Positions 14,691 through 38,900 of a DNA stretch of 64,000 nucleotides are shown here, piece after piece. The stretch spans positions 50,826 through 114,825 of the forward strand of contig PAPO01000024.1 in assembly GCA_002708935.1 (NCBI GenBank), in the 5' to 3' direction. Source of the stretch: Acidimicrobiaceae bacterium (GTDB lineage: Bacteria; Actinomycetota; Acidimicrobiia; Acidimicrobiales; Poriferisodalaceae). Made by a program: the position numbers and the translations under genes. Each line of letters opens with the position of its first letter. Position 1 is the stretch's first letter. The notes under the pieces were generated by a model. That model was not told the DNA's origin and made no database searches. It was given only the letters and a program-made list of their open reading frames with translations.

Positions 14691-15749
14691 TCAGTTTCTC
14701 AGCGCGATATGTCCAGGGTCTCCTGGCTCCAACTCACCTATTACCGCTGCGAAGTGACCCACTTCTGTGAGTTCTGCAACAGCATCGACAGCAGCGGACG
14801 CGTCACAAGAGAATAGAAGGCCTCCCGAGGTTTGAGCATCGCAGAGAATGAGGCGCTCAGTAAAGGATCCGCCACTTAAAAATGGTTCAAGAAAATCTAG
14901 GTTTCTTTCGGTGCCTCCAGCCACGAAACCACCTTCAACCAGGTCATTAGTGCCAGGTAGAAGTGGAACCGATGTTGTTTCGACTGAGGCAGATAACCCA
15001 CTCGCTGATGCCAGCTCATAGAGGTGACCGAGGAGGCCGAACCCCGTAACGTCTGTGGCTGCTGAGGCCCCCACTCGAGAGGCAGTTTTGGCCGCCGAGG
15101 AATTGAGGCGAGTCATTTCTCGAACGCCCGCAAGGTAAACCTCATTTAATGAACCGTCTTGTGAAATGGCTTCAGGGTCGGAACGCTTTAAAGCTGTTGC
15201 CAATAAACCTGTTCCTATTGGCTTTGTTAGGACCAGAGCTTGACCCGCTTCACCTCCGCCATTGGTAAGAAGTTCTTCAGGTGCAACTTCGCCCACGATA
15301 GACATCCCGTACATTGGTTCAGGTCCATCAACGGTATGACCGCCGGCTACGACCCAGCCGCCCTCATCAGCAGCCATCTGACCTCCGATGAGGACATCGC
15401 CGAGGATCTCCAAGGCAAGTTCCTCCCTCGGCCACGCGACCAGGTTGAGTGCGAATAATGGCTCGCCTCCCATGGCATAAATGTCGCTGACGGCGTTAGT
15501 CGCGGATATCTGACCCCAGAGTTTTGGGTCATCAACTATTGGGGTGAAAAAGTCGGCTGTGGCAGCTAGAGCATTCCCATCTGAGCGTTGCCACACGGCA
15601 GCGTCGTCGCTATTTTCTGTGCCGACCAGAAGGTCGGGATGACTAGGATTTGGCAAGTGACGCAACACGTGCGCCAAGTCACTGGGACCGAGCTTGCAAG
15701 CTCAACCAGCGCCGTGGCTGTATTGGGTCAGTCGAATCAAACTTGTCAC
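14691..15749 (-). CDS. selD: Selenide, water dikinase (selenophosphate synthetase) SelD, selenocysteine-containing (in-frame TGA at 15702-15704)
   Basis: The track ORF 14691..15677 carries SelD body motifs (AVSDIYAMGGEPLFALNLVAWP, GGHTVDG) but lacks the N-terminal active-site loop. Reading upstream in frame on the minus strand gives VTSLIRLTQYSHGAG-TGA-ACKLGPSDLAHVL. This matches E. coli IRLTQYSHGAGCGCK with the TGA at the Cys17 position. The start is GTG 15749 or TTG 15740. Confidence 0.85.
15656..15683 (-). promoter_or_regulatory. Candidate SECIS-like hairpin downstream of the selD UGA
   Basis: Minus-strand AGUGAC(16 nt)GUCACU begins 18 nt after the UGA. An alternative inner stem GCGCA/UGCGU has a CGUGU loop. 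Seen by eye only and not folded computationally. Confidence 0.35.
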
Positions 15750-15772
15750 GCCACCACGGTAGTACCCAAGGA

Positions 15773-16702
15773 CTAGTTCACCGTATATGTGCTCATTGTC
15801 TCAAGGAAAATTTGCATTCCCTGATCGCGGTCAATTTTGTAAGCAACTTCGCAGTTGAGTGGTTGATCTCCCCATCCGCGTTGATCCACAACCGTCATGC
15901 CCCGTGTGTGCGCTCCCTCGGTTTCAACGGTTACGTTCCGAAGTTCGAACTCAAATAATTCCGGGTGAGTTATAGCAAGAACAGCGCATGGGTCGTGCAG
16001 AGGGACCCGCTGCCCGCGAGTTCTCTTCTGGTACGACATGAGATAAAAGTCGAAAAGATCGGCAGCGAAACTTGCTACTTGATTATTGATGCTTCGGAGG
16101 TCTGCGATGATTTGTTCATCAATACCGAATTCATGAGTGAGGTTAAGCCCAGCCATTCGAAACGGTTTTATACCAGCGCTAAAAACAATTGAGGCAGCAT
16201 GGGGGTCAGCCCATACATTGAATTCGGCTGTGGCGGTGACGTTACCCACTGTTGCGCTCCCACCCATGATCGATATGCCGGCAACGCGCTCGACTATGTC
16301 GGGTGCTTGTTGCACGGCTAAAGCAATATTTGTAAGAGGTCCGATGGGCACCAGCCACACGTCGTCATTGTCGCGAACGGTGTCAATGATGAAACGCACT
16401 GCATCTGAGCTTTTGGCAGAGCGTGTGACTGTTGGCCGGGATGGTCCATCTAATCCTGTTTTGCCATGGGCCTCTTCGGCATGTCTTGGCGGTAATAAAA
16501 TGGGTTTTTCGGCGCCTGCATGCACCTCAACGTCAAGACCAACAAGTTCTGTGAGGAGAAGAGCATTGTCGGTGGTTAAGTCCAACGGTGCATTACCTGA
16601 CACAGTCGTGATTCCTAGAATTTCGGTCAACTTGGCGGCCATCATGATCGCTACAGCATCGTCGTGTCCGGGGTCGCAGTCGATGATGATTTTGGGCTTC
16701 AT
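15773..16702 (-). CDS. Nucleoside hydrolase (IUNH family)
   Basis: Canonical N-terminus MKPKIIIDCDPGHDDAVAIMMA (DxDxxxDD motif). I prefer ATG 16702-16700, which forms an ATGA overlap with the upstream gene's stop, over the track start at 16744. Confidence 0.85.
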   Translation of the reverse strand: MKPKIIIDCDPGHDDAVAIMMAAKLTEILGITTVSGNAPLDLTTDNALLLTELVGLDVEVHAGAEKPILLPPRHAEEAHGKTGLDGPSRPTVTRSAKSSDAVRFIIDTVRDNDDVWLVPIGPLTNIALAVQQAPDIVERVAGISIMGGSATVGNVTATAEFNVWADPHAASIVFSAGIKPFRMAGLNLTHEFGIDEQIIADLRSINNQVASFAADLFDFYLMSYQKRTRGQRVPLHDPCAVLAITHPELFEFELRNVTVETEGAHTRGMTVVDQRGWGDQPLNCEVAYKIDRDQGMQIFLETMSTYTVN

Positions 16703-17415
16703 ATTCTTGCCATCCCGGGGCCGTTCACGTCCGTGTCTCCCCAATAGTGGGGCAGTCTTAGGTACCCAACTCTTGGTAAGTCAAGCGCGGGTTTCAGTCC
16801 TTGATGAAGTTTGAGTCTTTGGATGGAACGAACGTGACTCAACATTTCGTAAAAAACCATCCAAAGGGAGCCCTCTAGGTCATAGGTGATACTGCTGCCC
16901 TGTGGATCGTCGGTGCTTGCCCCTCTCGGAAGGGTGGTAATTACGTACTTCCAAAACTCGGTGCCTCTAACCGTTTGCGTTTCCGATCTGAGCAGTTCTA
17001 TGGGCTGTTCTTCGACGAGTCTTGTCAGCCAACCGATCCCCAAGTTTAAATGGCTCAAGATGTCCGGTATTTGCGAGAATAAATCAGTATCGAGAACTCG
17101 GTCCCATTTGTTGTTAGGTCCCATCTGATGCTCGGCCCAGTTAATTGGGTCGGGAATGTCACCGTTGGGCCATAGAAGGTGGCCCGCTCGTCTTTTAGTG
17201 AACACAAGGGCATCCCATGCGATATGAGAGACTTGTCTTCTGCAGGACCACCACATCCATTCTTTTTCGGGCGAGGTGTCGTGGAAATCCAGTTGGTCGT
17301 CTGACAGGTCTGCCAGTTCGGCTTCTACCCAATCGACGATGTGGGGGTACCAAGGCATTGCCCCCGACTCTGAAGAAGTTGGCATCTCGAGGATGCTGGG
17401 GTCTGTTAGAGCCAT
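16699..17415 (-). CDS. DinB-like (DinB_2 / mycothiol-transferase-like four-helix bundle) family protein
   Basis: 238 aa with the His-containing helices WSCRRQVSHIAWD and FYEMLSHVRSIQRL, typical of DinB-fold metal-binding proteins. Assigned by eye. Confidence 0.5.
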   Translation of the reverse strand: MALTDPSILEMPTSSESGAMPWYPHIVDWVEAELADLSDDQLDFHDTSPEKEWMWWSCRRQVSHIAWDALVFTKRRAGHLLWPNGDIPDPINWAEHQMGPNNKWDRVLDTDLFSQIPDILSHLNLGIGWLTRLVEEQPIELLRSETQTVRGTEFWKYVITTLPRGASTDDPQGSSITYDLEGSLWMVFYEMLSHVRSIQRLKLHQGLKPALDLPRVGYLRLPHYWGDTDVNGPGMARI

Positions 17416-17452
17416 GTGACGAAGCTAGTCGTGCGCCTTGGATAGTTGCTGT

Positions 17453-20308
17453 TTAGCTAGGTAGTTCTTCGAAGGAACGCGGGCTTGGACAGTTACAGAC
17501 GAGATTCCTGTCACCGTGAGCGCCATCAATTCTGCTTACAGGTGGCCAGTATTTGTCCGCAGAGCTTGAAGGGAGCGGGAAGGCGGCTTCTTGTCGCGTG
17601 TACGGATGACGCCAATCGTCTTTTAGTAGGTCTTCGGCTGGGTGTGGAGCATTTACGAGAGGATTGTCTTCGGCGGGCCATTCACCTGATTCGATTCGTG
17701 CAATTTCTCTTCTGATTTCGATCATGGCATCGCAAAAGCGGTCGATCTCTTGCTTTGACTCACTTTCGGTTGGTTCAACCATCAATGTGCCCGGCACTGG
17801 GAAGGACATCGTTGGGGCATGAAAACCGTAGTCAATCAGTCTCTTTGCTATGTCTTCAACGGTTACGACCTCTGATAGCTGTCTCAGGTCCAAGATGCAT
17901 TCATGGGCGACCAATCCGTTTTGTCCGCGATATAAAACTGGATAGCTGTCGTCTAGCCGCAGTGCGATGTAGTTGGCATTTAAAATCGCGACTGCCGTGG
18001 CGCGCTGCAGCCCTTCGGCTCCCATCATCGCTATATACATCCATGGAATAGGGAGGATTCCTGCAGACCCCCATGGAGCTGCTGCTATGGCTCCACTTCC
18101 GGTTACTGGTCCAGCCTCGGGGACCAGCGGGTGATTGGGCAAGAAAGGAGCTAAATGTTCTCTTACCGCGACCGGGCCTATTCCCGGCCCCCCTCCTCCG
18201 TGAGGGATGCAGAAGGTTTTGTGGAGGTTGAGGTGGCTTACATCTGCTCCGAACTGTCCTGGTGCGGCAAGTCCGACCAGGGCATTTAAGTTTGCTCCAT
18301 CAACGTAGACCTGGCCGCCGGCTTCGTGGATTGTTCGACAGATCTGGACGATCCCTTCCTCAAATACCCCATGTGTCGACGGGTATGTGACCATTATCCC
18401 GGCAAGAACATCTTCATACTCAGCAACTTTGACTTGTAGGTCGTTGAGATCGATATCGCCATCATGATCGCATTCGACAACGACGACTTTGAGTCCTGCC
18501 ATAACCGCTGAAGCAGCGTTAGTCCCATGCGCTGAGGAAGGAATAAGGCAGACATCTCGTTGATCTTCGCCTCGGGACTCGTGATAACGCTTAATGGCTA
18601 GAAGGCCAGCGAACTCTCCTTGCGAGCCAGCATTAGGTTGTAGCGAAATTTCGTCATATCCAGTGCACGCGAGCAGCCAGTTGCTTAGCTCTTCAATTAG
18701 TTCCATGTAACCCCTTGCTTGGTCTAGAGGTGCGAAGGGATGGATGTCCGCGAACTCTGGCCAAGTAATCGGTGTCATTTCACTCGCGGCATTGAGTTTC
18801 ATTGTGCAACTACCGAGAGCAATCATGCTTCGGTCCAAAGCTATGTCCTTGTCAGACAGTCGGCGGATGTATCGGAGCATTTCGGTCTCTGAGCGGTAGG
18901 TATTAAAAACTGGATGATCCAGGTAGCTGGAAGAACGTTTTAGACGTTGAGGTATTCCTTTTTGGGCGTCAAAGGTTTGTGGGCTTTCGCTGTCGTTTAA
19001 GAATGCCTGAACTAAGTGATCAAGGGTCTCCGCATCGCAGGTTTCGTCGAAGGTCACAGCAACGCTGTCTGAGTCAACGAACCGAATATTTATTCCCTCT
19101 CCGAGAGCGCGTTGCACAACTTCTGCTGCCTCATCTGGAACCTGAATGGTAAGAGTGTCGAAAAATGCCTGATTAGAAATAGTGAACCCAGCAGATTCAA
19201 GTTTTGCGGCGAGGGCGGCAGTAAGGCTGTGGACCCGTTGAGCGATCTTCTTCAGACCATCGGGGCCATGGTAAACGGCGTACATAGATGCAATGACTGC
19301 AAGTAAAACCTGAGCTGTGCATATATTGCTCGTGGCCTTTTCGCGACGGATATGTTGCTCACGAGTTTGCAGTGCCAATCGTGTTGCTGGGCGACCTCCA
19401 CTGTCGACTGAGACACCAACTAACCGACCTGGGAGAGCTCGTTTGTGTTCTTCTCGTGCCGCAAGGTAGCCGGCGTGGGGACCCCCAAAGCCGAGTGGAA
19501 CCCCGAAACGTTGTGAAGTTCCTACGACTAAATCAGCCCCCAATTCTCCGGGAGGGGTCAGAAGGCAGAGGGCCAAAAGATCCGAAGCGACGCAAAGAAT
19601 TCCGTCATTTCCGTGGACTGCTTCCGCGATGTGGCTGATATCGCGAATGTCACCTGAAGAGCCCGGGTATTGGACTAAAACTCCGTAGCAATCGGCGGGA
19701 TCGAGATCTTGCCAGGCGTTACCAACTTGTATGTCGATGTCCAACGCTTCGGCACGAGTTCGGACCACATCGATGGTTTGCGGGTAACAGTCCGAATCGA
19801 CGAAGAATTTTTGTCCACTAGCTTTTGTTAGCCGCCTCGCCATGGTCATTGCCTCAGCTGCAGCAGTGCTTTCATCCAGCAACGAACTGTTAGATATCTC
19901 CATCCCGGTAAGGTCACAAACCAGTGTTTGGTAGTTGAGAAGAGCTTCCAGCCTGCCTTGGCTTATTTCTGGTTGGTAGGGCGTGTAAGCGGTGTACCAA
20001 CCAGGGTTCTCGAGGACTCGACGGACCACCACGGCGGGTGTCACTGTGTTGTGATAGCCGAGCCCTATCAATGATTTCATTGGCTTGTTCAAACTTGCTA
20101 TTCGTTGAATTTGGGCAATGGCATCAACTTCAGTTAGAGGATTCGGAAGATTAAGTGGTTCGTGTGTGCGGATTGCAGCGGGGACAACGGCAGTGCACAG
20201 CTCCTCGAGGCTGAGATAACCGGTAGCTGAGAGCATCAAAGCTATTTCGTCGTCGCTTGGGCCAAGGTGCCGGACGAGAAAGTCGGGTTGAGGGTTAAGT
20301 TCTTGCAT
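17453..20308 (-). CDS. gcvP: Glycine dehydrogenase (decarboxylating), glycine cleavage system P protein, single-chain form
   Basis: 951 aa with [14 protein letters not shown] and the PLP-lysine motif [18 protein letters not shown]. Confidence 0.95.
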
Positions 20309-20317
20309 GTGTAAGTC

Positions 20318-21451
20318 TCAATTTCGGCTGTAGTTGTGGGGAACGAATGGCAGAGCGCTGATTTGGCAAGGGACCTCTTTGCCCCGTACTTCAGCAACCA
20401 AAGTGCTTTCAGAGTGCGAAATGATTGGGTCGACATAGCCCATGGCAACTGGTCGATCACAGGTGGGTCCGAAGCCTCCGCTGGTGACAATTCCGACTTC
20501 CAGGCCTTCGTCAGTTCGTAGTTTTGCCCCGTCTCGGATCGGCCGCTTAGTTAGAGAGGAAATTCCTACTCGAGTTCTGTCAGTGCCACCTGAGAATTGA
20601 GCAAGTATGACCTCGGCGCCAGCAAAAGTAGGCTCGTCGCGTCGGCGGCGGGGGATTGTCCATCCGAGACGAGCCTCCACTGGAGTAATGGTTTCGTCGA
20701 GTTCATGGCCGTAAAGACATAGTCCGGCTTCAAGCCGCAGACTGTCCCTGGCCCCTAGACCACAAGAGCTGACGGTCTCGTCATGAAGGAGCATTTCTGC
20801 GAGTTTCACAGCATCGTCAGCCGGAACGATTAGCTCGAAGCCGTCTTCTCCGGTGTAACCGCTACGGCTGATAGCACATTCGATTCCGTCAATTGAGAAC
20901 TGGCCCGAAGCCATGAAGGTCAGATCTGCGATTGTTGAGTCGAAGCCTGACAGAACTGTCACCGCTTTTGGCCCCTGGAGTGCCACTTGAGCGAGGTCCT
21001 CTCGGATATGGATTTCCGTGTAATCGCCAAGAGCTGTTTCGATGCAGTGAAGATCACTCTCCACTCGTGAGGCGTTTAAAACCAATCGAAGTTGGGTGTT
21101 GCCTCTCGAGATGATGAGGTCATCGATGACACCTCCTTGGTCATTAGTTAAGAGCGCGTACCTCAGACGACCCACTTCGAGGTCTTGGATGGAAGCGGGT
21201 GAGACAAGTTCCAGCGAATCGATGACTTCAGGCAGTGAGGTCCCTGGTTTGGGAACGAGATCAACGATCCCCATATGGCTGACATCAAAGAGCCCTGCGG
21301 AGGAACGCGTAGCTAGATGCTCGTCGAGGATGCCGCCGAAACTGAGAGGCAATTCAAAACCAGCGAACGGCGCAAATTTCGCTCCTCGGTCGCGATGCAG
21401 CGAATGCAGGGGCGACTGTTTGGATATTCGAGTTTCGGAAGGTTCGCTCAT
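20318..21451 (-). CDS. gcvT: Aminomethyltransferase, glycine cleavage system T protein
   Basis: 377 aa with GLFDVSHMG and RSGYTGEDGFEL motifs. Lies 9 nt upstream of gcvP and directly downstream of the glycine riboswitch. Confidence 0.95.
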   Translation of the reverse strand: MSEPSETRISKQSPLHSLHRDRGAKFAPFAGFELPLSFGGILDEHLATRSSAGLFDVSHMGIVDLVPKPGTSLPEVIDSLELVSPASIQDLEVGRLRYALLTNDQGGVIDDLIISRGNTQLRLVLNASRVESDLHCIETALGDYTEIHIREDLAQVALQGPKAVTVLSGFDSTIADLTFMASGQFSIDGIECAISRSGYTGEDGFELIVPADDAVKLAEMLLHDETVSSCGLGARDSLRLEAGLCLYGHELDETITPVEARLGWTIPRRRRDEPTFAGAEVILAQFSGGTDRTRVGISSLTKRPIRDGAKLRTDEGLEVGIVTSGGFGPTCDRPVAMGYVDPIISHSESTLVAEVRGKEVPCQISALPFVPHNYSRN

Positions 21452-21477
21452 AGCTCACTAGCCCGCGTCGAGTTTCA

Positions 21478-21670
21478 TGCCCCGCGCTGTCCCGGAACCT
21501 GAGAGATTGGCCGCTTAGCGCAGTTTTCCCCTTCGGTGGAGCCAGCCGAAGCCGGCTCTCTTTCCAGCGTTGCTTCTTCCCTGCGGTCCGGAGGCCTGAG
21601 AGTTTCCCGGGGCGGTTGCTCCTTCGGCGCCGGTCAACCGCAATAGCGGTTAACCAGACTCTCCCACTGG
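21478..21670 (-). promoter_or_regulatory. Tandem glycine riboswitch (two aptamers) in the gcvT leader
   Basis: Minus-strand aptamer 1 reads GGGAGAGUCUGG...GCGCCGAAGGAGCAACC...CUCUCAGGCCUCCGGAC. Aptamer 2 reads GGAAAGAGAGCCGG...CUCCACCGAAGGGGAAAAC...CUCUCAGGUUCCGGGACAG. Both carry the conserved GGAGAG / ACCGAAGGRGCAA / CUCUCAGG..GGAC cores. Confidence 0.85.
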
Positions 21671-21753
21671 GCGTTGGCAGCAAACGTCATCTTAATCGTG
21701 GCGCACTCGCAAGGGTGTGATCAGTTGTGAGTGCGGTACTACGTTGAGAGCAA

Positions 21754-22110
21754 CTACTTGAGAAAATCCGCTATGCGGTCCTTTGGGCGGCCAATTATCG
21801 CATTGTCGGACCTAACGAGAACCGGGCGCTGCATCAAAGCTTTGCGTTCAAGTAGGAGTTCCACGACGGCTTCGGGGTTATCCACATAGTCATCGGGGTC
21901 TAGCCCCAATTCTTTGAATTTCGAGTCCTTGCGCACTAGGTCCTCTACTGGGTCTTCTAGGACAGAGGCAATGTGTTCTAAAGTCTCGCGATCTGGCGGT
22001 GACTTCATATAGAGGACGACATTTGCATCAACGTTTTCCTCCTCAGCGACCGCTAAGGCGTTTTTGGACGAACCTCAATGGGGGTTGTGGTAGATCGTGA
22101 CTTTAGGCAT
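21754..22110 (-). CDS. arsC: Glutaredoxin-type arsenate reductase ArsC homolog, selenocysteine-containing (in-frame TGA at 22075-22077)
   Basis: The track ORF 21754..22008 (84 aa) is only the C-terminal two thirds. In-frame extension gives ATG 22110-22108, preceded by GAGGAG with a 5 nt spacer, then MPKVTIYHNPH-TGA-GSSKNALAVAEEENVDANVVLYMKSPP.... R773/E. coli ArsC reads ITIYHNPACGTSRN...ILYLENPP, so the TGA sits on catalytic Cys12. The three ArsC arginines appear conserved (LVRK, MQRPVL, IGRPKD). Confidence 0.8.
22041..22058 (-). promoter_or_regulatory. SECIS-like hairpin downstream of the arsC UGA
   Basis: Minus-strand CCUUAGC-GGUC-GCUGAGG forms a 7 bp stem (one G-U pair) with a 4 nt GGUC loop. 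It starts 17 nt after the UGA, so spacing and the G/U-containing apical loop resemble bacterial SECIS elements. Confidence 0.55.
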
Positions 22111-22142
22111 TGGCGCTCCTCGACATTTCAGATAGGACCGTA

Positions 22143-22913
22143 TCAGCGTTTGAAGCCTTCTTGGATCCGCTCGATCATGTCAGGGGCGACGCCAGGTCCT
22201 TTTTCTCTCGCCCATTTGAGGCCATCTTCTCGGGTCATCTCAGCAAGTAACCGCATCTGCTTTTTTTCCTCTCGCAATGTGTGCCATGAATTCGTTGCGA
22301 CAGTTTCGGCCCAGTCGTTAGTGGTCGCTTCAAGTTCGGCTTCAGGTACACACCGGTTAGCGAGACCAATTTGGATTGCCTCGACTCCTTCGACGACTCG
22401 TCCGCTGTACATGATGTCGCGAGCAACCAAGGGGCCAACTCGCTCCGGCAAGCGATTAGTCATTCCCCACGTGGGAACCATGCCCCATTTCCCATGTGTG
22501 TCGCAGAAACGCGCGTCATCAGCACAAATGAGCAAATCGCATGCTAAGGCCAGCTCCAATGCACCTGTATAGCAATGACCGCGTACCGAAGCTATTACCG
22601 GTTGAGGCATGCGTTCGATTAAGTCAAGTGTCTCCGCCTGCTGGTATGGGTTGACCAACTTGTCACCCTTTTCGATCGCCTTTAGATCGTTTCCGGCAGA
22701 GAACGACCGGCCGGCTCCGGTAAGGATCACTACTCCGATTTCATCTGGTGAATCAGCAATGTCGGATAGGAGCGATCTGAGCTGTTCAAATAGCAAAGGA
22801 CTCAAAGCATTGAGCGCTTCGGGTCGATTCAGAGTGAGAGTGGACACTCCATCATGATCGGTTCGTACTACTAATGAACTGTTGGTGTCATTCATGCTTG
22901 CAGTGTCCCACAC
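22143..22913 (-). CDS. Enoyl-CoA hydratase/isomerase family protein
   Basis: 256 aa with LTGAGRSFSAGNDLK and ASVRGHCYTGALELALACDLLICA crotonase motifs. Confidence 0.8.
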   Translation of the reverse strand: MWDTASMNDTNSSLVVRTDHDGVSTLTLNRPEALNALSPLLFEQLRSLLSDIADSPDEIGVVILTGAGRSFSAGNDLKAIEKGDKLVNPYQQAETLDLIERMPQPVIASVRGHCYTGALELALACDLLICADDARFCDTHGKWGMVPTWGMTNRLPERVGPLVARDIMYSGRVVEGVEAIQIGLANRCVPEAELEATTNDWAETVATNSWHTLREEKKQMRLLAEMTREDGLKWAREKGPGVAPDMIERIQEGFKR

Positions 22914-22927
22914 AGCGGAACCGCTAG

Positions 22928-24127
22928 CTACGCGATACGACGTTGGGCTTCCAGATCAGATGCATCTGCGGCCTCGACTTCTTCTCGACTCACACCGAGC
23001 ATGAAAAGAATTGCATCTAGGTACGGAACATTAAGAGAAGTGTCGGCCGCCCCTGCCAATACAGGTTTAGCGTTGAACGCGATTCCCAGCCCTGCTTTTT
23101 GCAACATCGGTAGGTCATTAGCTCCATCGCCAATAGCGACAGTTTGTTCCAAAGAGATGCCCTCGTTGAGTGCGATATTTTCGAGGAGGGTTGCCTTGGC
23201 TTCGGGATCAATAATGTCGCCTTCAATCCGCCCGGTTAGGACACCATCGACAACCTCGAGTTTGTTGGCGTACGAGTGATCGATGCCCAGTTCTTTGGCT
23301 AACTCGTCTGTGAAGTGAGTGAAGCCTCCGCTGATTATCGCCACCCGGTATCCGAGGCGTTTCAACGTTCGAATGAAAGTCCTGGCACCTGCGGTAAGTA
23401 CCATTCGTGATTTAGAGCGATTGATTATTTCGACCCCTGCGCCGGCTAACAATTGGACCCTCTGTTTCAGTGCCTCGGAGTAATCAATTTCACCCCGCAT
23501 GGCCTGCTCGGTTAGGCGACTTATTTCCTCGCCATGACCTGCCTCATCGGCCAATAAATCGATCACCTCATTGCGAATGAGGGTCGAATCGACATCAAGA
23601 ACTACTAGACGGCTAGAGCGTCGAGACAAGCCATGAGGCTGAACTGCAATATCGATACCTTCTTGTGCCGCTACGTCCATGAGCGATGCTCTTAATTTTT
23701 CTGGGTCTGCACCTTCAACTAGAAATTCGTAACTCCAGACCGGAAATCGCGAGAGGCGATGAATTCGATCGATGTTGGCACCGCTCGACGTAATCGCACC
23801 ACTGGTTCGCGCTAGAGAACTCGGGGAAAGCTCAGAGGCCAATGCCGTAACGACGTGCCGCTTAACGTGCTGAGTTGGGGTGGAATCGATGACCTCAAAA
23901 TCAATATCTAAATCTCGTTCCCAACCGAACAAGAGAACTTCCTTAGCCAAATCCTTTCCCGTTGGGACAGAGACGGCTAAACCCAGAGTGAGTTGACGCC
24001 TGACTACGACTTGCTCGATGTCTTGCAACTCAGCGTCAAGGGAAGACAGAAGAGTCAAGAGTTCAGTAGTTATGCCCGGCCGGTCTTGGCCAGTCACTCT
24101 GATCAATATGGTCTGGGGGAGGGCCAC
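22928..24127 (-). CDS. serB: Phosphoserine phosphatase SerB with N-terminal ACT domains (actinobacterial SerB2-like architecture)
   Basis: 399 aa with HAD motifs VLDVDSTLI and GDGANDLPML. The N-terminal ~180 aa is ACT-like (ITVTGQDRPGITTELL). Confidence 0.85.
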   Translation of the reverse strand: MALPQTILIRVTGQDRPGITTELLTLLSSLDAELQDIEQVVVRRQLTLGLAVSVPTGKDLAKEVLLFGWERDLDIDFEVIDSTPTQHVKRHVVTALASELSPSSLARTSGAITSSGANIDRIHRLSRFPVWSYEFLVEGADPEKLRASLMDVAAQEGIDIAVQPHGLSRRSSRLVVLDVDSTLIRNEVIDLLADEAGHGEEISRLTEQAMRGEIDYSEALKQRVQLLAGAGVEIINRSKSRMVLTAGARTFIRTLKRLGYRVAIISGGFTHFTDELAKELGIDHSYANKLEVVDGVLTGRIEGDIIDPEAKATLLENIALNEGISLEQTVAIGDGANDLPMLQKAGLGIAFNAKPVLAGAADTSLNVPYLDAILFMLGVSREEVEAADASDLEAQRRIA

Positions 24128-31208: not shown

Positions 31209-32627
31209 TTAGAGCCGGACATACTCGTAGTCAACGGGCTGAGTGTTAATTCCCGCTGTGGGAGCTGAAATCCAACTCGCCATTTGACCAGCTTCATATA
31301 CCGGCTGCATTAAGGAGAGCACGAAGTCTCGGTCTGAATCAGTTGGGAGGAAGTTAGGCGCCAACTCATTCCACTCAGCCTCGGAAGTTATTTCACCGTC
31401 GGGAGTAACAAATTGGTTTTGATGCACTCCAACTTGTCGGTGGAATGCCTCGTGAGGGAGTCCCAGCTGAAGGTCAACCCCGTTTTCTTCGAGGATGCGG
31501 TTCCATCGACGTAGACCTTTTGCGCAGTCATCAATGTAGGAGCGTCTTAGCTGCTGGTTTACAACCGCGATCGCGGGTCGAGTCGTTTCAGTCCACTGGC
31601 CATCCACTATTTCGATTATTGAGTCCTGTTCATCGACCAGTAAGTGATCATCTTTATAGGAATCCTCAGCGAACCTTCCCTTTAATCCAGCTGAATAGTA
31701 ATTCGCTGCATTCGTTGAGGTTTCAGATCCGAACAAGTCCAGAGAAACCGAGAAGTGAAAGTTTATGTATTTTTGGAGAGTTGGTAAGTCAACAACCCCA
31801 TAGCTGCGAACATCATCGGTGTTGTGTTCATTCATAACGTCGCAGGTCCGTTGAATGACTCGACCTATACCTGAAGCGCCCACGAACATGTGGTGGGCCT
31901 CTTCTTTCAACATAAAATCGCAAGTTCGACTTAACGGGTCAAAAGCTGACTCTTTGAGAGCTCCCAACTGATACTTGCCATCCCGGTCTGTGAAGTAAGT
32001 AAAGAGTAAATAAGACAACCAGTCCGATGTCTTCTCGTTGAAAGCACCCAGGATGCGAGGATGGTCGGGATCGCCGGAGTTCCTCTCCAAGAGAGCGTCG
32101 GCTTCGTCTCGCCCGTCCCGACCAAAATAGGCATGAAGTAGATACACCATCGCCCACAGGTGGCGCCCCTCTTCCACATTTATCTGAAATAAGTTCCGCA
32201 AGTCGTAGAGCGAAGGAGCTGTCTGACCTAAGTATCTCTGTTGCTCGACGGACGCTGGTTCTGTGTCACCTTGCACCACGATTAATCGCCTGAGTTCGGT
32301 TCTGAATTCACCAGGCACTTCATGCCAGACCGGCTGCCCTTTAAGTTCGCCGAACCCGATCCGCCGATCAGTTTCCGGCTCGGAAAGAAATATGCCCCAG
32401 CGATATTCGGGCAGTGTGACGTGAGAGAAGTGAGCCCAACCTTGTTGGCCAACGTCTACTGCCGTGCGTAAATATATTTCTTTGTCTTGAAAGTTGGCTG
32501 GTCCCATTTCAGACCACCAATTAGCGAATCGAGGTTGCCAACTTTCCAGTGCACGTTGGAGGCGCCTGTCGCCAACGAGATCGACATTGTTGGGAATTTT
32601 TTCTGAATAATCGATTTCTTTAGTCAT
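31209..32627 (-). CDS. boxB: Benzoyl-CoA 2,3-epoxidase (benzoyl-CoA oxygenase) component B, diiron protein
   Basis: 472 aa. The N-terminus IDYSEKIPNNVDLVGDRRLQRALESWQPRFANWW and the diiron EExH-type helices (EEGRHLW, EEAHHMF) match BoxB as I recall it. Confidence 0.85.
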   Translation of the reverse strand: MTKEIDYSEKIPNNVDLVGDRRLQRALESWQPRFANWWSEMGPANFQDKEIYLRTAVDVGQQGWAHFSHVTLPEYRWGIFLSEPETDRRIGFGELKGQPVWHEVPGEFRTELRRLIVVQGDTEPASVEQQRYLGQTAPSLYDLRNLFQINVEEGRHLWAMVYLLHAYFGRDGRDEADALLERNSGDPDHPRILGAFNEKTSDWLSYLLFTYFTDRDGKYQLGALKESAFDPLSRTCDFMLKEEAHHMFVGASGIGRVIQRTCDVMNEHNTDDVRSYGVVDLPTLQKYINFHFSVSLDLFGSETSTNAANYYSAGLKGRFAEDSYKDDHLLVDEQDSIIEIVDGQWTETTRPAIAVVNQQLRRSYIDDCAKGLRRWNRILEENGVDLQLGLPHEAFHRQVGVHQNQFVTPDGEITSEAEWNELAPNFLPTDSDRDFVLSLMQPVYEAGQMASWISAPTAGINTQPVDYEYVRL

Positions 32628-32651
32628 CTGGTCGTGTGTTTGGTGCTGTCT

Positions 32652-34250
32652 TTAGGTGCGTCGGTTATCAAATTCGGGGCGAGACCCGCTGCCATAGCGT
32701 TGAAGTGCTCCCAGCGGTCCGCTTGCATTTGATCTAGTAAATACCCAATTCTGCCAAGCTGAAAGCCGAGCGAAAATCTTTGTAGCCATAGTTTCAGGGC
32801 CAGAGAACCTTAGGTTCGCCTCCATTGCCGTCAAAGCGTCTGCTGAGAAGCTAGATCTTTCCTCAATAAAGAGTCTCAGTTCATCATCCCAGTCCAAATC
32901 ATCCGGGGTAACGCTAACTAACCCCAGTTGTGCTGCTTGGTCAGCCAAGATGCTTGCATTGGAGTAAGAAAGGGCTTCCAAAGCTTCTTGGTCACCCCAA
33001 AAACGAGAATTCAATCGACTCAAGTTATTCCACATCGGCATTACTCCGAAGTTGGTGTAGGTCAGAAGTATTGACGCCGCTGGTAGAGGGCTGTCGTGGT
33101 CTTCGAAGCGCCCGTCAAGCATAAAAATGCGATCTGCCGCAAGTGCCAATTCGAAAAGAATTCCGACGAAACAGGAGCCAGGTTCGATGGCAGCGACCAG
33201 CGTCTTGGCAGTCAAATCGAGCCTTGTTAAACATTTTTTCCACAGAAGCTGGATCTCAGCGATGCCATTTGTCGTCGAATCAAAAAGTCCAGAATCCATC
33301 TGCGTCGCATGGTCAATAGAGCCTTCTGTCCGCAAGATCAATGTACCGATGTCGGGATAGTCGAATCGAAGGCGGCAGAGAACGTCATCCAGTTCAAGGG
33401 CAGTTCGGAGTAGCCACTCAGGATCAGCGTCTACGAACACCTTCAGTTCTGCGTGGCTGGCGAACAGGGTTACCTTGACCCAGCGGTAGTCGATACGATC
33501 CTCAGCAATCTGTACTTCTATCGGGGAGAGATGAACAGGTTCGGCTTCCACCCGGACGGTAGAGGCTGCAAGTTCGCTTGCTCGATGGGCGACGGCATCG
33601 TCGAAGTTTGTCGGAGTGGCGAGTTCATCGACTAAGCCCCAGTCCAACGCTTCTTGGCCGGAGATGCCCTCTGCCTTCGCTGCAAAAATGTCAGCCCTAT
33701 CCCGTCGGATGTGTCTTTTGTCTGTGAGGCGAGTCAGTCCGCCAGTTCCGGGAAGAACTCCTAGTAGCGGAACTTCTGGCAAGGAAACGGAAGTGCTTTT
33801 GTCATCGACGAGAAGAATATGGTCACAAGCGAGCGCTAACTCATAACCGCCACCTGAGCAGGCTCCATTGATGGCGGCTAGGAACTTGATCCCACTTAAG
33901 GCGCTGGCTTCTTCGATCTCCAATCTTGTTTCGTTGGTGTATTTACAGAAATTGATTTTGTGGGAATGGTCGGCGGCTGCCAGCATTCGAATATTGGCAC
34001 CAGCACAAAACGTCCCTTCTAAGCCACTCGTAATTACGACACATTTCACGTTCGGGTGAGTAAGACGGATGTGACGGATGGCATTTGCTAGCTCGATGTC
34101 GACACCTATGTCGTAGCTGTTTAGCTTCAATTCATATGCGCCAAATGTTGCGGCCGCCGGGTCGACAGTAAGCGTCAAGGTTGCTATTTCACCGTCGATT
34201 GAGAAGACCCAATGTCGAAATTTGTCAGGCGTGATATCAAAAGTGGTCAC
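32652..34250 (-). CDS. boxC: 2,3-epoxybenzoyl-CoA dihydrolase (benzoyl-CoA-dihydrodiol lyase), double crotonase fold
   Basis: 532 aa. ELKLNSYDIGVDIELANAIRHIRLTHPNVKCVVITSGLEGTFCAGANIRML matches the BoxC signature region. Lies immediately upstream of boxB. Confidence 0.8.
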   Translation of the reverse strand: MTTFDITPDKFRHWVFSIDGEIATLTLTVDPAAATFGAYELKLNSYDIGVDIELANAIRHIRLTHPNVKCVVITSGLEGTFCAGANIRMLAAADHSHKINFCKYTNETRLEIEEASALSGIKFLAAINGACSGGGYELALACDHILLVDDKSTSVSLPEVPLLGVLPGTGGLTRLTDKRHIRRDRADIFAAKAEGISGQEALDWGLVDELATPTNFDDAVAHRASELAASTVRVEAEPVHLSPIEVQIAEDRIDYRWVKVTLFASHAELKVFVDADPEWLLRTALELDDVLCRLRFDYPDIGTLILRTEGSIDHATQMDSGLFDSTTNGIAEIQLLWKKCLTRLDLTAKTLVAAIEPGSCFVGILFELALAADRIFMLDGRFEDHDSPLPAASILLTYTNFGVMPMWNNLSRLNSRFWGDQEALEALSYSNASILADQAAQLGLVSVTPDDLDWDDELRLFIEERSSFSADALTAMEANLRFSGPETMATKIFARLSAWQNWVFTRSNASGPLGALQRYGSGSRPEFDNRRT

Positions 34251-34376
34251 GTTGTCAACCTAAGGGAGTGGCTTTTCTGGATATCGCGGTCAACTCTTGA
34301 TATGCCTTTCGCATTTTCGTCCCACACTCTAAACACGTGAGAGGCTGTAACTCATGGCTAGCAGAAGGGAATTTTC

Positions 34377-35873
34377 TTGACCAGTAATGCGTTACACAGG
34401 TTCCTTATTGATCCGGCGGCTATTGCGCCGGATGCGGTTGCGTTAACGGATGCTCCAACTGGGGCAACGACAACTCGGCATGAGTTGTTGGAAGAGGCGC
34501 AAGCTGTAGCGCGGCTGCTTTCGAAGCAGGGTGTGGTTGCAGAACAAAGAGTTGTAATGTGCTGCACCGACACCAAAGCATTTCTGGCATGGTTTTGGGG
34601 CGCGATGTGGATAGGCGCTGTACCCGTCCCAGTTTCGACGATGCTCACAGCGAAGGATTACAAGTTCCTTATAGAAGACTCACGTGCTGTTGGAGTGACG
34701 TACTCTCCTGTTTTCAGCGCCGCGATGAACGAAGCCGCTGTTGACCAGCCGTTTCTTGAATGGATGCAGGTCGATGAAGAAATCCCAGATCTAGTTGAAG
34801 AAGTAGATCTGGGAGAACCGTTTCCAGCTGTCGACGATGACATCGCGTTCTGGCTGTACACATCTGGTACGACCGGTTTTCCCAAAGGGGCGATGCACCG
34901 GCATGTGGACCTCGGGTTTTGTACCGACGTGTATGCGAAAGCAGTACTAGAGATGGGTAGTAATGATGTGGTCTACTCGGTGGCCAAACTGTTCTTCGCA
35001 TATGGACTCGGAAATGCAGGATATTTTCCAGCGGGGACCGGCGCCCAATCAGTTCTTAACCCAGGTCGACCGATACCTGAAGAGATTTCGGCTCACGTGC
35101 TTTTGTATCGCCCAACAATTTTTTTCGGGGTTCCGACCTCGTTCGGTCAATTGTTGAGTTCGGATGTACCCGACAACACGTTCGCATCGGTGAGGATTGC
35201 TGTTTCCGCGGGTGAACCACTTCCACCTGACATACATCAGCGATTCAAAGAAAGATTTAATGTTGAAATTTTGGATGGTCTGGGAACAACTGAACTTGCC
35301 CATATTGCTATCTCCAATAGGCCGGGTTGCTCCGTGCCAGGAACCAGCGGGACCGTCGTGGAAGGGTACGAGGTATCCCTTCGCGATGAGAGTGGAGAAG
35401 AAGTGCAAGACGGAGAAGCCGGCAGGCTCTACGTAAAAGGAGAATCGGTGATGGTCGGGTATTGGAACCGAACCGACCAGACGCGGCAAGCATTATCGGG
35501 CGCGTTTCTGGCTACAGGCGATACGTATATCCGCAACCCGGACGGCACTTACACATGTCTAGGAAGGTCAGACGACATGTTGAAGGTAGGAGGAATCTGG
35601 GTCAGTCCAACTGAAGTTGAGTCTTGCATCCTCGAACTCAAAGAAATAGCGCAAGTAGCTGTTGTTGGAGCAGACGATGAGGAGGGACTCGTCAAACCTA
35701 AGGCTTTTGTGGTTCCCGAAACGTCATCGGCGGAGGCTGATCTCGGGAGCTTGGTACAAGAACACGTTAAAGAGCGTTTAGCACCGTTCAAATACCCCAG
35801 ATGGGTCGAAATAGTTGACGAGCTTCCACAAACTGCGACGGGGAAGATCAAGCGGTATTTACTTCGCTCTTAG
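34377..35873 (+). CDS. Benzoate-CoA ligase family protein
   Basis: 498 aa (TTG start), with YTSGTTGFPKGAMHRH and GRSDDMLKVGGIWVSPTEVE typical of benzoate/4-hydroxybenzoate-CoA ligases. Divergent from boxC. Confidence 0.75.
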   Translation: MTSNALHRFLIDPAAIAPDAVALTDAPTGATTTRHELLEEAQAVARLLSKQGVVAEQRVVMCCTDTKAFLAWFWGAMWIGAVPVPVSTMLTAKDYKFLIEDSRAVGVTYSPVFSAAMNEAAVDQPFLEWMQVDEEIPDLVEEVDLGEPFPAVDDDIAFWLYTSGTTGFPKGAMHRHVDLGFCTDVYAKAVLEMGSNDVVYSVAKLFFAYGLGNAGYFPAGTGAQSVLNPGRPIPEEISAHVLLYRPTIFFGVPTSFGQLLSSDVPDNTFASVRIAVSAGEPLPPDIHQRFKERFNVEILDGLGTTELAHIAISNRPGCSVPGTSGTVVEGYEVSLRDESGEEVQDGEAGRLYVKGESVMVGYWNRTDQTRQALSGAFLATGDTYIRNPDGTYTCLGRSDDMLKVGGIWVSPTEVESCILELKEIAQVAVVGADDEEGLVKPKAFVVPETSSAEADLGSLVQEHVKERLAPFKYPRWVEIVDELPQTATGKIKRYLLRS

Positions 35874-38324: not shown

Positions 38325-38900
38325 TTGTCTGAAAGTAAATGGAGTCAACAGAGAAATGTTCCCCGGGGCTTCGCCTATGACGAGCGCTGGCAAGGTTTAG
38401 CCGACTCTGGGCAAAACATTCATGGAGAGGCTGATTTCATCTCAGGATTGAAGCCCGCCTCTGTGCTTGACGCAGGCTGCGGCACTGGGCGAGTGGCGAT
38501 TGAGTTGGTCCGGCGTGGTATCGATTGCGTTGGTGTCGACCTTGATCGTGAGATGTTGGCGGTGGCGTCCGAGAAGGCTCCAACTTTGGACTGGGTAGAA
38601 GCTGACCTAAATGACTTCAACTTAGGCCGGACCTTTGACATCGCAGTTCTGGCAGGCAATGTGATGATCTTCGTGCTTTCTGGATCCGAAGAGCTAGTTA
38701 TCAATCAAGTAGCTCGCCACCTATGCGCAGGTGGGCTTGTGGTGGCCGGGTTCTCACTAGATACCGGTGGTATTGGCCTCGAGGACTATGACGCTCTCAT
38801 GAAGCGGCTGGGCCTATCACCTGCGGGTCGATGGAGCACTTGGCAAAGGGAGCCCTTTACCGGTGGTTCGTACGCAGTTTCGGCCCACCGAAAGAACTGA
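38325..38900 (+). CDS. Class I SAM-dependent methyltransferase
   Basis: 191 aa with motif I VLDAGCGTGRV and an acidic post-I residue (GVDLD). Confidence 0.75.
   Translation: MSESKWSQQRNVPRGFAYDERWQGLADSGQNIHGEADFISGLKPASVLDAGCGTGRVAIELVRRGIDCVGVDLDREMLAVASEKAPTLDWVEADLNDFNLGRTFDIAVLAGNVMIFVLSGSEELVINQVARHLCAGGLVVAGFSLDTGGIGLEDYDALMKRLGLSPAGRWSTWQREPFTGGSYAVSAHRKN

Follow-up and report, generated by a model that had tools for sequence, protein, structure and literature searches.

The ArsC-family gene and its neighbourhood

Two genes with an in-frame UGA lie on the minus strand of the 64-kb window, by which we mean the whole stretch of DNA analysed: a short gene of the ArsC family, which we call Sec-ArsC for the residue predicted at its codon 12, and, 6 kb away, selD (table 1). 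At the Sec-ArsC locus the table-11 ORF list gives 21754..22008 (-) alone, with a product of 84 aa. The sequence-only reading from which this analysis started had claimed that the frame runs on upstream through a single TGA, and the coordinates were confirmed: translation of 21754-22110 (-) yields MPKVTIYHNPH, then the TGA at 22075-22077, which is the sole internal stop, and then GSSKNALAV...IGRPKDRIADFLK up to the terminal stop. The ATG at 22110 and the GAGGAG motif that the same reading had taken as its Shine-Dalgarno sequence are present as described, and relatives carry ATG or GTG at the equivalent site.

Table 1. Features of the window associated with the two UGA-containing genes
Feature	Position	Strand	Details
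selD (selenide, water dikinase)	14691..15749	-	In-frame UGA; GTG start proposed at 15749; TIGR00476, NF002098
selD SECIS-like hairpin	15658..15676	-	7-bp stem UGGCGCA/UGCGUCA; 5-nt loop containing G-U
selD in-frame UGA	15702..15704	-	TGA in 47/47 SelD copies
Predicted Sec-ArsC CDS	21754..22110	-	118 residues including the predicted U12, plus TAG stop; translation, PF03960, TIGR00014 and 1I9D match
Sec-ArsC SECIS-like hairpin	22041..22058	-	7-bp stem CCUUAGC/GCUGAGG; GGUC apical loop; 16-nt spacer after UGA
Sec-ArsC in-frame UGA	22075..22077	-	Codon 12; predicted Sec codon at catalytic Cys12 position
Shine-Dalgarno-like GAGGAG	22116..22121	-	5 nt 5' of ATG 22108-22110; read from sequence

The arrangement serB-(ech)-arsC(U)-gcvT-gcvP-...-selD(U) is conserved in about half of the 80 species compared below. 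In ~26 species arsC(U) has been relocated, and selD is not found within 10 kb of it there; because selD fails to follow the moved gene, the linkage seems to have been inherited as synteny and not kept by selection for coupling. A functional coupling of arsC(U) with selD was considered and set aside as unsupported. Genes for arsenic handling (arsB, acr3, arsA, arsR and arsM) were absent from the window and from the gene's surroundings in three relatives with a rearranged locus (L056, L062 and L068), in a search that covered ORFs of at least 150 aa and, within +/-10 kb of gene calls, smaller ones as well; the neighbours of arsC(U) in these three relatives are unrelated to ars. The earlier remark that no arsR, arsB, acr3 or arsA lies nearby therefore holds, and because of this absence arsenate as the substrate is something that we only infer.

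Family and active site of the product

The joined product resembles ArsC on both sides of the TGA, as had been proposed. PF03960 matched it with E = 1.4e-14 (54.6 bits; cut-off 24), and TIGR00014 (arsC) was the top NCBIfam model, with 94.7 bits when computed with Cys substituted for Sec, which is below the trusted (equivalog) cut-off of 106.05. R773 ArsC (1I9D) aligned over the full length with E = 2e-16. In the residue-by-residue alignment to 1I9D and 1JZW the UGA codon falls exactly on catalytic Cys12, His8 and Ser15 are kept, and Arg60/94/107 of R773 ArsC correspond to R60/R95/R108, which are invariant across 20 aligned homologs; this agrees with the earlier placement of the TGA on the nucleophilic cysteine and with the claim that three arsenate-binding arginines are retained. 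The predicted active-site mapping is fixed by this full-length alignment to solved ArsC structures.

Every one of the nearest solved structures is an arsenate reductase; the scores of Spx and YffB were far lower. The redox motif is U12-G-S-S15 (UxxS). An identity as an Spx/MgsR regulator was ruled out by this motif, which is UxxS and not CxxC, and by scores below the cut-offs: TIGR01617 gave 51 against 75 bits, the Spx models gave 18-38 against 123-159 bits, and PDB matches to Spx had E = 1e-4 to 4e-7, compared with 2e-16 for ArsC. These comparisons establish the family of the gene.

Conservation of the in-frame UGA

The comparative set comprised 87 Sec-ArsC loci, including those of the 80 best-matching GTDB species, almost all titled Acidimicrobiia/Acidimicrobiales; the tblastn matches in the 80 species were full length. 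Codon 12 was TGA in all 87 loci, never TAA or TAG, and constantly stood 43 codons before VEDLVRKD. The 11 codons 5' of the TGA, on whose conservation the sequence-only reading had staked its case, are conserved as coding sequence across the 80 species, with VTIYHNPH kept and wobble at CCN, AAY and CAY.

Among the 120 closest homolog clusters, 79 are truncated calls of 84-106 aa, which bears out the expectation that standard callers would truncate or miss the gene; the codon-12 column is written as Trp in 21 clusters and as Cys in 13. Whether orthologs carry Cys at this column had been raised as a check on the prediction, and they do: this is the residue in the 13 clusters, and all three Cys-form homologs whose DNA was read (L092, L094 and L098) have TGC there. 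Both the coding conservation across the UGA and the Sec/Cys column are established by these data.

A constrained hairpin downstream of the UGA

The CCUUAGC-GGUC-GCUGAGG hairpin described earlier was found as proposed, with its stem beginning at the 17th nt after the UGA. Its consensus among relatives is CCUU[A/G]GC-GGUC-GC[U/C]GAGG. Over 75 unique sequences the hairpin codons GCC, UUR, GCG, GUC, GCY and GAG, which are codons 6-11 after the UGA, were fixed in 74-75, synonymous sites included, whereas the flanking codons wobble; the leucine in the hairpin was UUR in 75/75, whereas the leucine 14 codons downstream was CUN in 65/72. Near-invariance was thus the outcome where the earlier reading had made loss of the hairpin among relatives a test of its claim. 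The nucleotide constraint on the hairpin is established by this pattern, and it is relaxed in the Cys-form homologs: those with the same NALAVA peptide use CUG (2/2), and the remaining ones alter the NALAVA peptide itself.

Standard pairing was present in 99.4% of hairpin cells compared with 29-70% in slid controls, and pair counts also exceeded those of shuffled controls. RNAalifold, unprompted, returned the hairpin as the sole consensus structure. The hairpin was retained at genomic GC contents of 38-52% or more, and was identical at 38-44% GC. One pair varied (G-C in 60, A-U in 8 and G-U in 4 sequences, with no mismatches), and because the A-U/G-C state tracks genome GC, this covariation could partly be composition rather than compensation. 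An outward extension of the helix, as a lower SECIS stem, was not conserved in the 75 unique sequences.

RNA folding, which had been suggested as a further check, gave a divided answer. The stem was present in the minimum-free-energy fold, and the 24-nt hairpin reached -10.8 kcal/mol with z = -2.5 (1/200 shuffles as good), but in 48-66-nt contexts around it the stability was not significant (z = -0.3 to -0.9 against shuffles). Because the thermodynamics of the context are uninformative, the argument for the hairpin rests on the comparative data. An Rfam scan of the window at the gathering threshold found no SECIS family and a glycine riboswitch only; the Actinomarina preprint describes bacterial SECIS elements as poorly represented in Rfam (bioRxiv 10.64898/2026.04.03.716425).

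A UGA-containing selD and the selenocysteine machinery

The selD product scored 360.8 bits with TIGR00476 (cut-off 125) and 354 bits with NF002098 (cut-off 299). Gene callers begin it at a TTG codon, which leaves 328 aa, and read-through from the proposed start gives the peptide IRLTQYSHGAG-U-ACK, with U at the position that we take to be Cys17 of E. coli SelD. The 47 SelD copies compared were that of the window, those of six near-identical metagenome contigs and those of 40 species loci, so that the Sec form of selD is present in 40 of the 80 species loci. In the 37 unique hairpin sequences each of the seven pairs was formed in 97-100%, and the loop GU was present in 36/37. With this UGA-containing selD in cis, which is established here, part of the Sec machinery is present in the window.

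The sequence-only reading had looked to the Sec machinery for confirmation. The Sec-form selD was found in the window; selA, selB and selC were found neither in the 64-kb window nor in the flanks of relatives. ARAGORN detected no tRNA-Sec (selC) in the window or in the loci of 60 relatives (L001-L060), NCBIfam models identified no selA or selB among 10 large window ORFs, and E. coli SelA and SelB, used as tblastn queries over the window and ~95 relatives' loci (~1.4 Mb), returned only a cross-match to TypA. We assume that the host genome carries selA, selB and selC. In the sister order Actinomarinales, complete genomes are reported to contain selA, selB, selC and selD, with SelD in the Sec form (bioRxiv 10.64898/2026.04.03.716425).

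Scanning the window for further selenoproteins at 126 in-frame TGA sites gave none that was convincing beyond arsC and selD; candidates near 29104, 38217, 8792 and 48134 were dismissed on inspection of their translations.

Proposed explanation and its alternatives

The main interpretation of the sequence-only reading is supported, and none of the conditions that it had named as refuting proved to hold. We propose that 21754-22110 is very probably a Sec-decoded ArsC-family gene. Its mRNA would be translated from the ATG at 22110, with the UGA of codon 12 not read as a stop. The GGUC-looped 7-bp hairpin 16 nt downstream would serve as a bacterial SECIS and recruit SelB with Sec-tRNA(Sec), and we infer that selenocysteine is inserted at codon 12 in this way. 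Selenophosphate for Sec synthesis would be supplied by SelD, itself a predicted UGA-containing selenoprotein, whose gene lies 6 kb away. The product would be a 118-residue thioredoxin-fold reductase with a selenolate as nucleophile in place of the Cys12 thiolate, and Sec12 would be flanked by His8 and by the oxyanion-binding triad Arg60/Arg95/Arg108. By analogy with R773 ArsC, the likeliest reaction would begin with Sec12 attacking the arsenate bound in the site; a thiol-dependent reduction would follow, and arsenite would be released. Judged from sequence, the whole reading, a genuine glutaredoxin-coupled (R773-type) ArsC-family selenoprotein that is SECIS-decoded and likely arsenate-reducing, seems to us quite probable; arsenate as its physiological substrate is slightly favoured. 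As for the presumed reductant, Actinobacteria usually lack glutathione, and canonical GSH/Grx coupling may therefore not apply to Sec-ArsC.

Every public gene call treats the TGA as a true stop, as the 79 truncated clusters illustrate, and the locus could accordingly be a pseudogene or a 5'-truncated gene with a product of 84 aa (ATG 22008) or of ~100 aa from an internal start. However, the truncated product would contain neither the catalytic nucleophile nor the first beta-strand, and the upstream codons are conserved as protein, with wobble, behind a conserved start that has a Shine-Dalgarno motif in the window. In addition, the TGA is fixed and never exchanged for another stop, and a nucleotide-invariant hairpin is not expected of a pseudogene, so that we regard a true stop as very improbable. 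The Trp deposited in 21 clusters could instead mean that the UGA is read as Trp, Gly or Cys, under a reassigned code or by unprogrammed read-through. Yet the DNA behind three of these clusters (five contigs) merely carries TGA at the Sec column, and its table 11 translation does not give the deposited protein. TGA is also the ordinary stop of 17 of the 52 window ORFs, which indicates a standard genetic code, and the window contains 362 TGG Trp codons. Homologs have their catalytic Cys in this column, and Trp or Gly in its place would abolish the enzyme; together with the conserved SECIS-like hairpin and the presence of a Sec-form SelD, this makes decoding as a standard amino acid hardly credible. 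A sequencing or assembly error for TGC or TGT, which the sequence-only reading had named as fatal to its claim, is refuted, its probability being practically nil: the TGA recurs in the genomes of 80 species, each assembled independently, and exact copies of the truncated product are found in 325 indexed blocks of metagenome assemblies, so that TGA has been seen in hundreds of independent assemblies.

A further alternative contests only the final step of the proposed explanation: the gene would encode a real ArsC-fold selenoprotein, but arsenate would not be its physiological substrate, and the enzyme would act as a general selenol thiol/oxyanion reductase, much as the sequence-only reading had suggested, or in selenium handling (for instance the reduction of Se or its delivery to SelD). 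The functions of the family are described as largely uncharacterised in a 2026 review (PMC13188914), which fits such a role. So do the absence of an ars transporter or regulator from the window and from beside the gene in rearranged relatives, the position within a conserved housekeeping block in about half of the species and the TIGR00014 score under the equivalog cut-off. Against it stand the complete R773 catalytic set (H8, U/C12, S15, R60, R94 and R107), the solved arsenate reductases as nearest structures, and the ~26 species in which selD does not accompany the relocated gene, a pattern of inherited synteny. Stand-alone arsC genes, moreover, are common in marine bacteria. We consider this alternative possible but doubtful. 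That Sec-ArsC is an Acidimicrobiia housekeeping selenol reductase tied to selenium or thiol metabolism (a Se reductant or relay for Sec-form SelD, or a general oxyanion/disulfide reductase), and not a determinant of arsenic resistance, seems unlikely; what leaves room for it is the finding of the Sec form in 80/80 best-matching loci, the absence of ars genes and the retention of the gene in the conserved block serB-arsC(U)-gcvTP-selD(U).

Implications for annotation

One hundred of the 120 closest homolog clusters are mis-annotated in public databases, either as truncations of 84-106 aa or as full-length proteins with Trp at the active site. Anyone who relied on such calls to deduce how marine Acidimicrobiales metabolise As or Se would overlook two predicted selenoproteins, along with the catalytic residue in both. 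The locus confirms the Sec trait in abundant marine Acidimicrobiales, and it offers a clean, deeply sampled case in which a predicted coding-region SECIS constrains both codon choice and peptide sequence. Sec-ArsC is genuine, mis-annotated and already known, its family having been catalogued since 2005, and it opens no new question.

Comparison with known systems

The sequence-only reading had compared the hairpin with the SECIS of E. coli fdhF, and this comparison stood in part. Both elements lie inside the coding sequence directly 3' of the UGA and present an identical GGUC tetraloop on a G/C-rich stem; however, the loop occupies nt 22-25 from the U of the UGA in fdhF and nt 27-30 in Sec-ArsC, that is, 5 nt farther away. 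The Sec-ArsC stem is also perfectly paired and has no bulge, and thus no counterpart of what we take to be the bulged U17 in the upper stem of the fdhF SECIS.

R773 ArsC (PDB 1I9D, 1JZW) shares the fold family, and H8, residue 12, S15, R60, R94 and R107 match by position. The window gene differs in having Sec predicted for Cys12, in its length (118 versus 141 aa), in lying outside an ars operon, in the uncertain GSH/Grx partner of an actinobacterium and in not reaching the TIGR00014 cut-off. The "Arsenate reductase 2"/ArsC-like UxxC proteins (cd03032, NF041106) and Spx/MgsR belong to the same PF03960 superfamily and likewise have a redox motif near the N-terminus, but these UxxC/CxxC groups are without the Arg triad, whereas the window gene combines UxxS with the triad. 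The window selD resembles the Haemophilus-type Sec-SelD in its UGA at the N-terminal catalytic Cys position (GAG-U-ACK) and its downstream hairpin, and Sec-form SelD is known also from Actinomarina (bioRxiv 10.64898/2026.04.03.716425).

The closest counterpart is a family already in the literature. A Sec arsenate reductase with a UxxS motif and a SECIS appears in the Sargasso Sea survey of 2005 (Zhang, Fomenko & Gladyshev, PMC1088965, Table 3), the GOS survey of 2008 (Zhang & Gladyshev, PMC2398784, selenoprotein family table) and the 2026 review, which lists the UxxS arsenate reductase (PMC13188914), and the mention, in the sequence-only reading, of Sec-containing ArsC-like proteins from marine metagenome surveys was correct (PMC1088965, PMC2398784). 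A keyword search of the selenoproteome papers and the Actinomarina preprint did not turn up the Sec form in all 80 loci, the GC-independent invariant SECIS or the synteny with selD(U). The window gene is regarded as a member of the published "arsenate reductase"/"ArsC 1" UxxS selenoprotein family (published representatives AACY01238341 and MBT3519430.1), a membership by domain and motif definition. With ArsC 1 (UxxS; COG1393/pfam03960/TIGR00014) it shares the Pfam family, the UxxS motif (U-G-S-S here), a marine metagenome origin, Cys homologs and a downstream stem-loop whose small apical loop contains G, and there is no essential difference between the two.

Reading Frame and Protein Family of arsC(U)

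The only ORF listed mechanically at the ArsC-family gene, designated arsC(U), was an ATG-initiated stretch of 84 aa (21754..22008, minus strand), and direct translation gave a frame of 118 codons with a single internal stop, reading MPKVTIYHNPH*GSSKNALAVAEEENVDANVVLYMKSPPDRE...IGRPKDRIADFLK*. The coordinates that an earlier sequence-only reading had assigned to the frame, TGA, ATG, and hairpin were each reproduced on rereading the window sequence.

Features of arsC(U), its neighbors, and other window genes
Feature	Position	Strand	Remark
serB	22928-24127		first in local order
enoyl-CoA hydratase (ech)	22143-22913		between serB and arsC(U)
Shine-Dalgarno-like GAGGAG	22116-22121	-	5-nt spacer to ATG
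arsC(U) frame	21754-22110	-	118 codons
arsC(U) start, ATG	22108-22110	-	read from sequence
arsC(U) internal stop, TGA	22075-22077	-	read from translation
Hairpin CCUUAGC-GGUC-GCUGAGG	22041-22058	-	16 nt 3' of UGA
Glycine riboswitch, single aptamer	21574-21676	-	Rfam RF00504, 63.8 bits; between arsC(U) stop and gcvT-gcvP
238-aa ORF (hyp238)	16699-17415	-	no Pfam/NCBIfam match
selD UGA	15702-15704	-	GAG-U-ACK
selD hairpin	15658-15676	-	7 bp, offsets 28-46 from UGA
selD	14691-15749	-	TIGR00476, 360.8 bits (cut-off 125); NF002098, 354 (cut-off 299)
box cluster	31209-35873		boxB TIGR03225, 779 bits; boxC 668 bits, slightly below cut-off
511-aa ORF	35870-37405	-	no match in NCBIfam, sole database scanned
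SAM-dependent methyltransferase, small	38325-38900	+	weak TehB match, PF03848, E = 5e-7
Acyl-CoA ligase	39404-41032	-	NF005426, 658 bits (cut-off 822)

Scored with Cys in place of the stop, the product matched Pfam ArsC (PF03960, 54.6 bits vs. a cut-off of 24), and its top NCBIfam model was TIGR00014 (arsenate reductase, glutaredoxin; 94.7 bits, slightly below the cut-off of 106.05), with the Spx/MgsR and YffB-type models much weaker. The top solved-structure matches were arsenate reductases, including the glutaredoxin-coupled R773 ArsC (1I9D/1JZW) at E = 2e-16 over the full length, compared with E = 1e-4 to 4e-7 for Spx structures. In the alignment to 1I9D/1JZW, the UGA fell exactly on Cys12, His8 and Ser15 were kept, and R60, R95, and R108, which showed no variation among 20 homologs, aligned with catalytic Arg60, Arg94, and Arg107; the active-site motif is U-G-S-S, that is, UxxS. 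These results bear out the earlier assignment to the ArsC family, with the TGA on the nucleophilic cysteine and the three arsenate-binding arginines retained.

Conservation of the UGA Codon

A protein search with the product returned 2,714 relatives, the best 120 clusters of which were classified: 79 were truncated calls (84-106 aa) beginning 3' of the UGA, 21 were full length but had Trp as the active-site residue, and Cys occupied this column in 13. For three of the Trp clusters, contig DNA was read; each of the five contigs carried TGA at this column in DNA of 38-44% GC, and translation with table 11 did not reproduce the deposited proteins; thus, at least the Trp entries whose contigs were read are artefacts of code-4/25 gene calling. 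The Trp-form entries (ENA contigs L087-L091; homolog proteins P0004-P0016, P0035, P0081, and others) come from short low-GC contigs in which TGA was translated by the Mycoplasma-type code. The hairpin in contigs L087-L091 (38-44% GC) is identical to that of arsC(U), and these contigs may represent Actinomarinales-like relatives.

A scan of GTDB species representatives yielded 454 relatives, and the best 80 were nearly all titled Acidimicrobiia/Acidimicrobiales MAGs, among them MED-G95 (96% identity), several "Microthrix" UBA bins, and Ca. Poriferisodalis sponge symbionts. TGA, and not TGC or TGT, lay exactly 43 codons before VEDLVRKD in 80/80 species loci, six metagenome contigs, and the window, and in these 87 loci it was preceded by a conserved VTIYHNPH with an ATG or GTG start at the same position. 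The codons 5' of the UGA varied among relatives by third-position wobble (CCN, AAY, CAY), which we read as a coding signature. A sequencing error at the TGA was excluded because 325 indexed blocks of public assemblies contain the exact truncated product, and a reassigned genetic code was excluded because TGA terminates 17 of the 52 window ORFs.

Constraint on the Putative SECIS Hairpin

Across 75 unique 66-nt segments beginning at the UGA, the A-L-A-V-A-E codons were GCC, UUR, GCG, GUC, and GCY (75/75 each) and GAG (74/74); the flanking Gly, Ser, Lys, Asn, Val, and Asp codons used every synonymous alternative, and a Leu 14 codons farther 3' was CUN in 65/72. The hairpin nucleotides were unchanged in the 38-44% GC contigs, where one would not ordinarily expect GCC, GCG, or GUC, and UUG was kept also in many loci with CUN at other Leu codons, where it is unusual. 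Thus, base composition cannot explain the invariance, which held across GC contents and against local codon choice.

Standard pairs filled 99.4% of stem cells, compared with 29-70% when the 3' arm was slid; the observed covariation score was reached by 0/500 shuffles, and RNAalifold, run without a supplied structure, placed its sole consensus element at this hairpin. Covariation was present at one pair (G-C 60, A-U 8, G-U 4, no mismatches); because its alternation between A-U and G-C follows the GC content of the genome, we weighted synonymous-site invariance above covariation. The isolated hairpin folds at -10.8 kcal/mol (z = -2.5), but in longer contexts the folding energy was without significance. 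At the sequence level, Cys-form homologs serve as a control for this constraint. All Sec forms in the best 120 clusters encode NALAVAE; in two Cys forms with the same NALAVA peptide, Leu is CUG and one hairpin pair is broken, with GUG altering the loop in one and Asp replacing Glu at the next position in the other. The remaining Cys forms have different peptides (NALALLDEL, NAVAIAKDL, and others).

Gene Neighborhood and Sec Machinery

The order serB-(ech)-arsC(U)-gcvT-gcvP-hyp238-rihA-selD(U) (window 14691-24127) was conserved in about half of the 80 Acidimicrobiia species (loci L001-L080), with two selenoprotein genes ~6 kb apart in one block. Glycine cleavage genes are classically induced through a glycine riboswitch placed, as here, before gcvT-gcvP; the riboswitch is followed by gcvT, gcvP, the 238-aa ORF (conserved at this position, ahead of rihA, in 39 species), a rihA-like nucleosidase, and selD(U). 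In 40/80 species loci, selD was located downstream of arsC(U) at a distance of ~6 kb, and in ~26 of the 80 species arsC(U) was relocated, with no selD within 10 kb.

The selD gene, called as a 328-aa ORF from a TTG start through truncation by the ORF caller, reads IRLTQYSHGAG-(TGA)-ACKLGP and is a selenoprotein gene of its own, with its UGA at what we take to be the position of E. coli Cys17. TGA was present in 47/47 selD copies examined, and pairing in the selD hairpin was 97-100%; of 37 unique sequences, 36 had G-U in its loop. No selA, selB, or tRNA-Sec was found in the 64-kb window or in the relatives' loci searched for each. For Actinomarinales, a sister order within Acidimicrobiia, a 2026 preprint reports selA, a divergent selB, selC, and selD, with SelD in the Sec form, in 84/84 complete genomes; ArsC is unmentioned there (bioRxiv 10.64898/2026.04.03.716425).

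Elsewhere in the window, the aerobic benzoyl-CoA (box) cluster, which also holds a benzoate-CoA ligase family gene, suggests aromatic-compound catabolism in the marine Acidimicrobiales host. The acyl-CoA ligase best matches 3-(methylthio)propionyl-CoA ligase; this DmdB-like gene has several enoyl-CoA hydratases and a family III CoA-transferase in its vicinity, so a role connected with DMSP demethylation is possible. The only window gene that can be linked, and then loosely, to the chemistry of metalloids is the TehB-like (tellurite-resistance) methyltransferase.

Function and Comparison with Known Selenoproteins

As the sequence-only reading had noted, ars genes are absent nearby: no ArsB, Acr3, ArsA, ArsM, or ArsR family member was found in the window or beside the gene in three rearranged genomes. 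The functional assignment is therefore drawn from active-site conservation, from which we lean toward an arsenate reductase; that the same selenoenzyme acts on a substrate other than arsenate seems less probable, although it deserves consideration. For an arsenate reductase, with R773 ArsC as the model, the Sec12 selenolate would attack arginine-bound arsenate, and thiol-dependent reduction would then release arsenite; Sec would be a stronger nucleophile than the Cys of R773 ArsC.

Taken together, the observation of arsC(U) is confirmed and its interpretation as a Sec-containing ArsC with a SECIS is supported. The family is already known, and the case, clean, well supported, and of use for annotation, would not surprise selenoprotein specialists. 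To this family we add incremental details, namely that all 80 best-matching Acidimicrobiia species loci have the Sec form, that the SECIS is invariant over differing GC contents, that synteny exists with Sec-SelD, and that mis-annotation is extensive. The hairpin had been likened to the E. coli fdhF SECIS (UGA codon 140); in comparison with the real fdhF sequence, the GGUC apical loop is common to both, but the spacing differs (nt 27-30 in arsC(U) vs. nt 22-25). Sec-containing ArsC-like proteins have been described in two marine surveys: the Sargasso Sea selenoproteome, which reported "Arsenate reductase" as a new selenoprotein family (14 sequences under COG1393, motif UxxS, SECIS shown in a figure; PMC1088965), and the GOS survey, which lists "ArsC 1" (pfam03960, UxxS; Sec 77 vs. 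Cys 784 sequences, as the table columns read; PMC2398784). A 2026 review assigns the family to TIGR00014, gives a GenBank representative for it, and describes such proteins as functionally uncharacterised (PMC13188914). The window gene shares the defining features of this published UxxS ArsC selenoprotein family (PMC1088965, PMC2398784).
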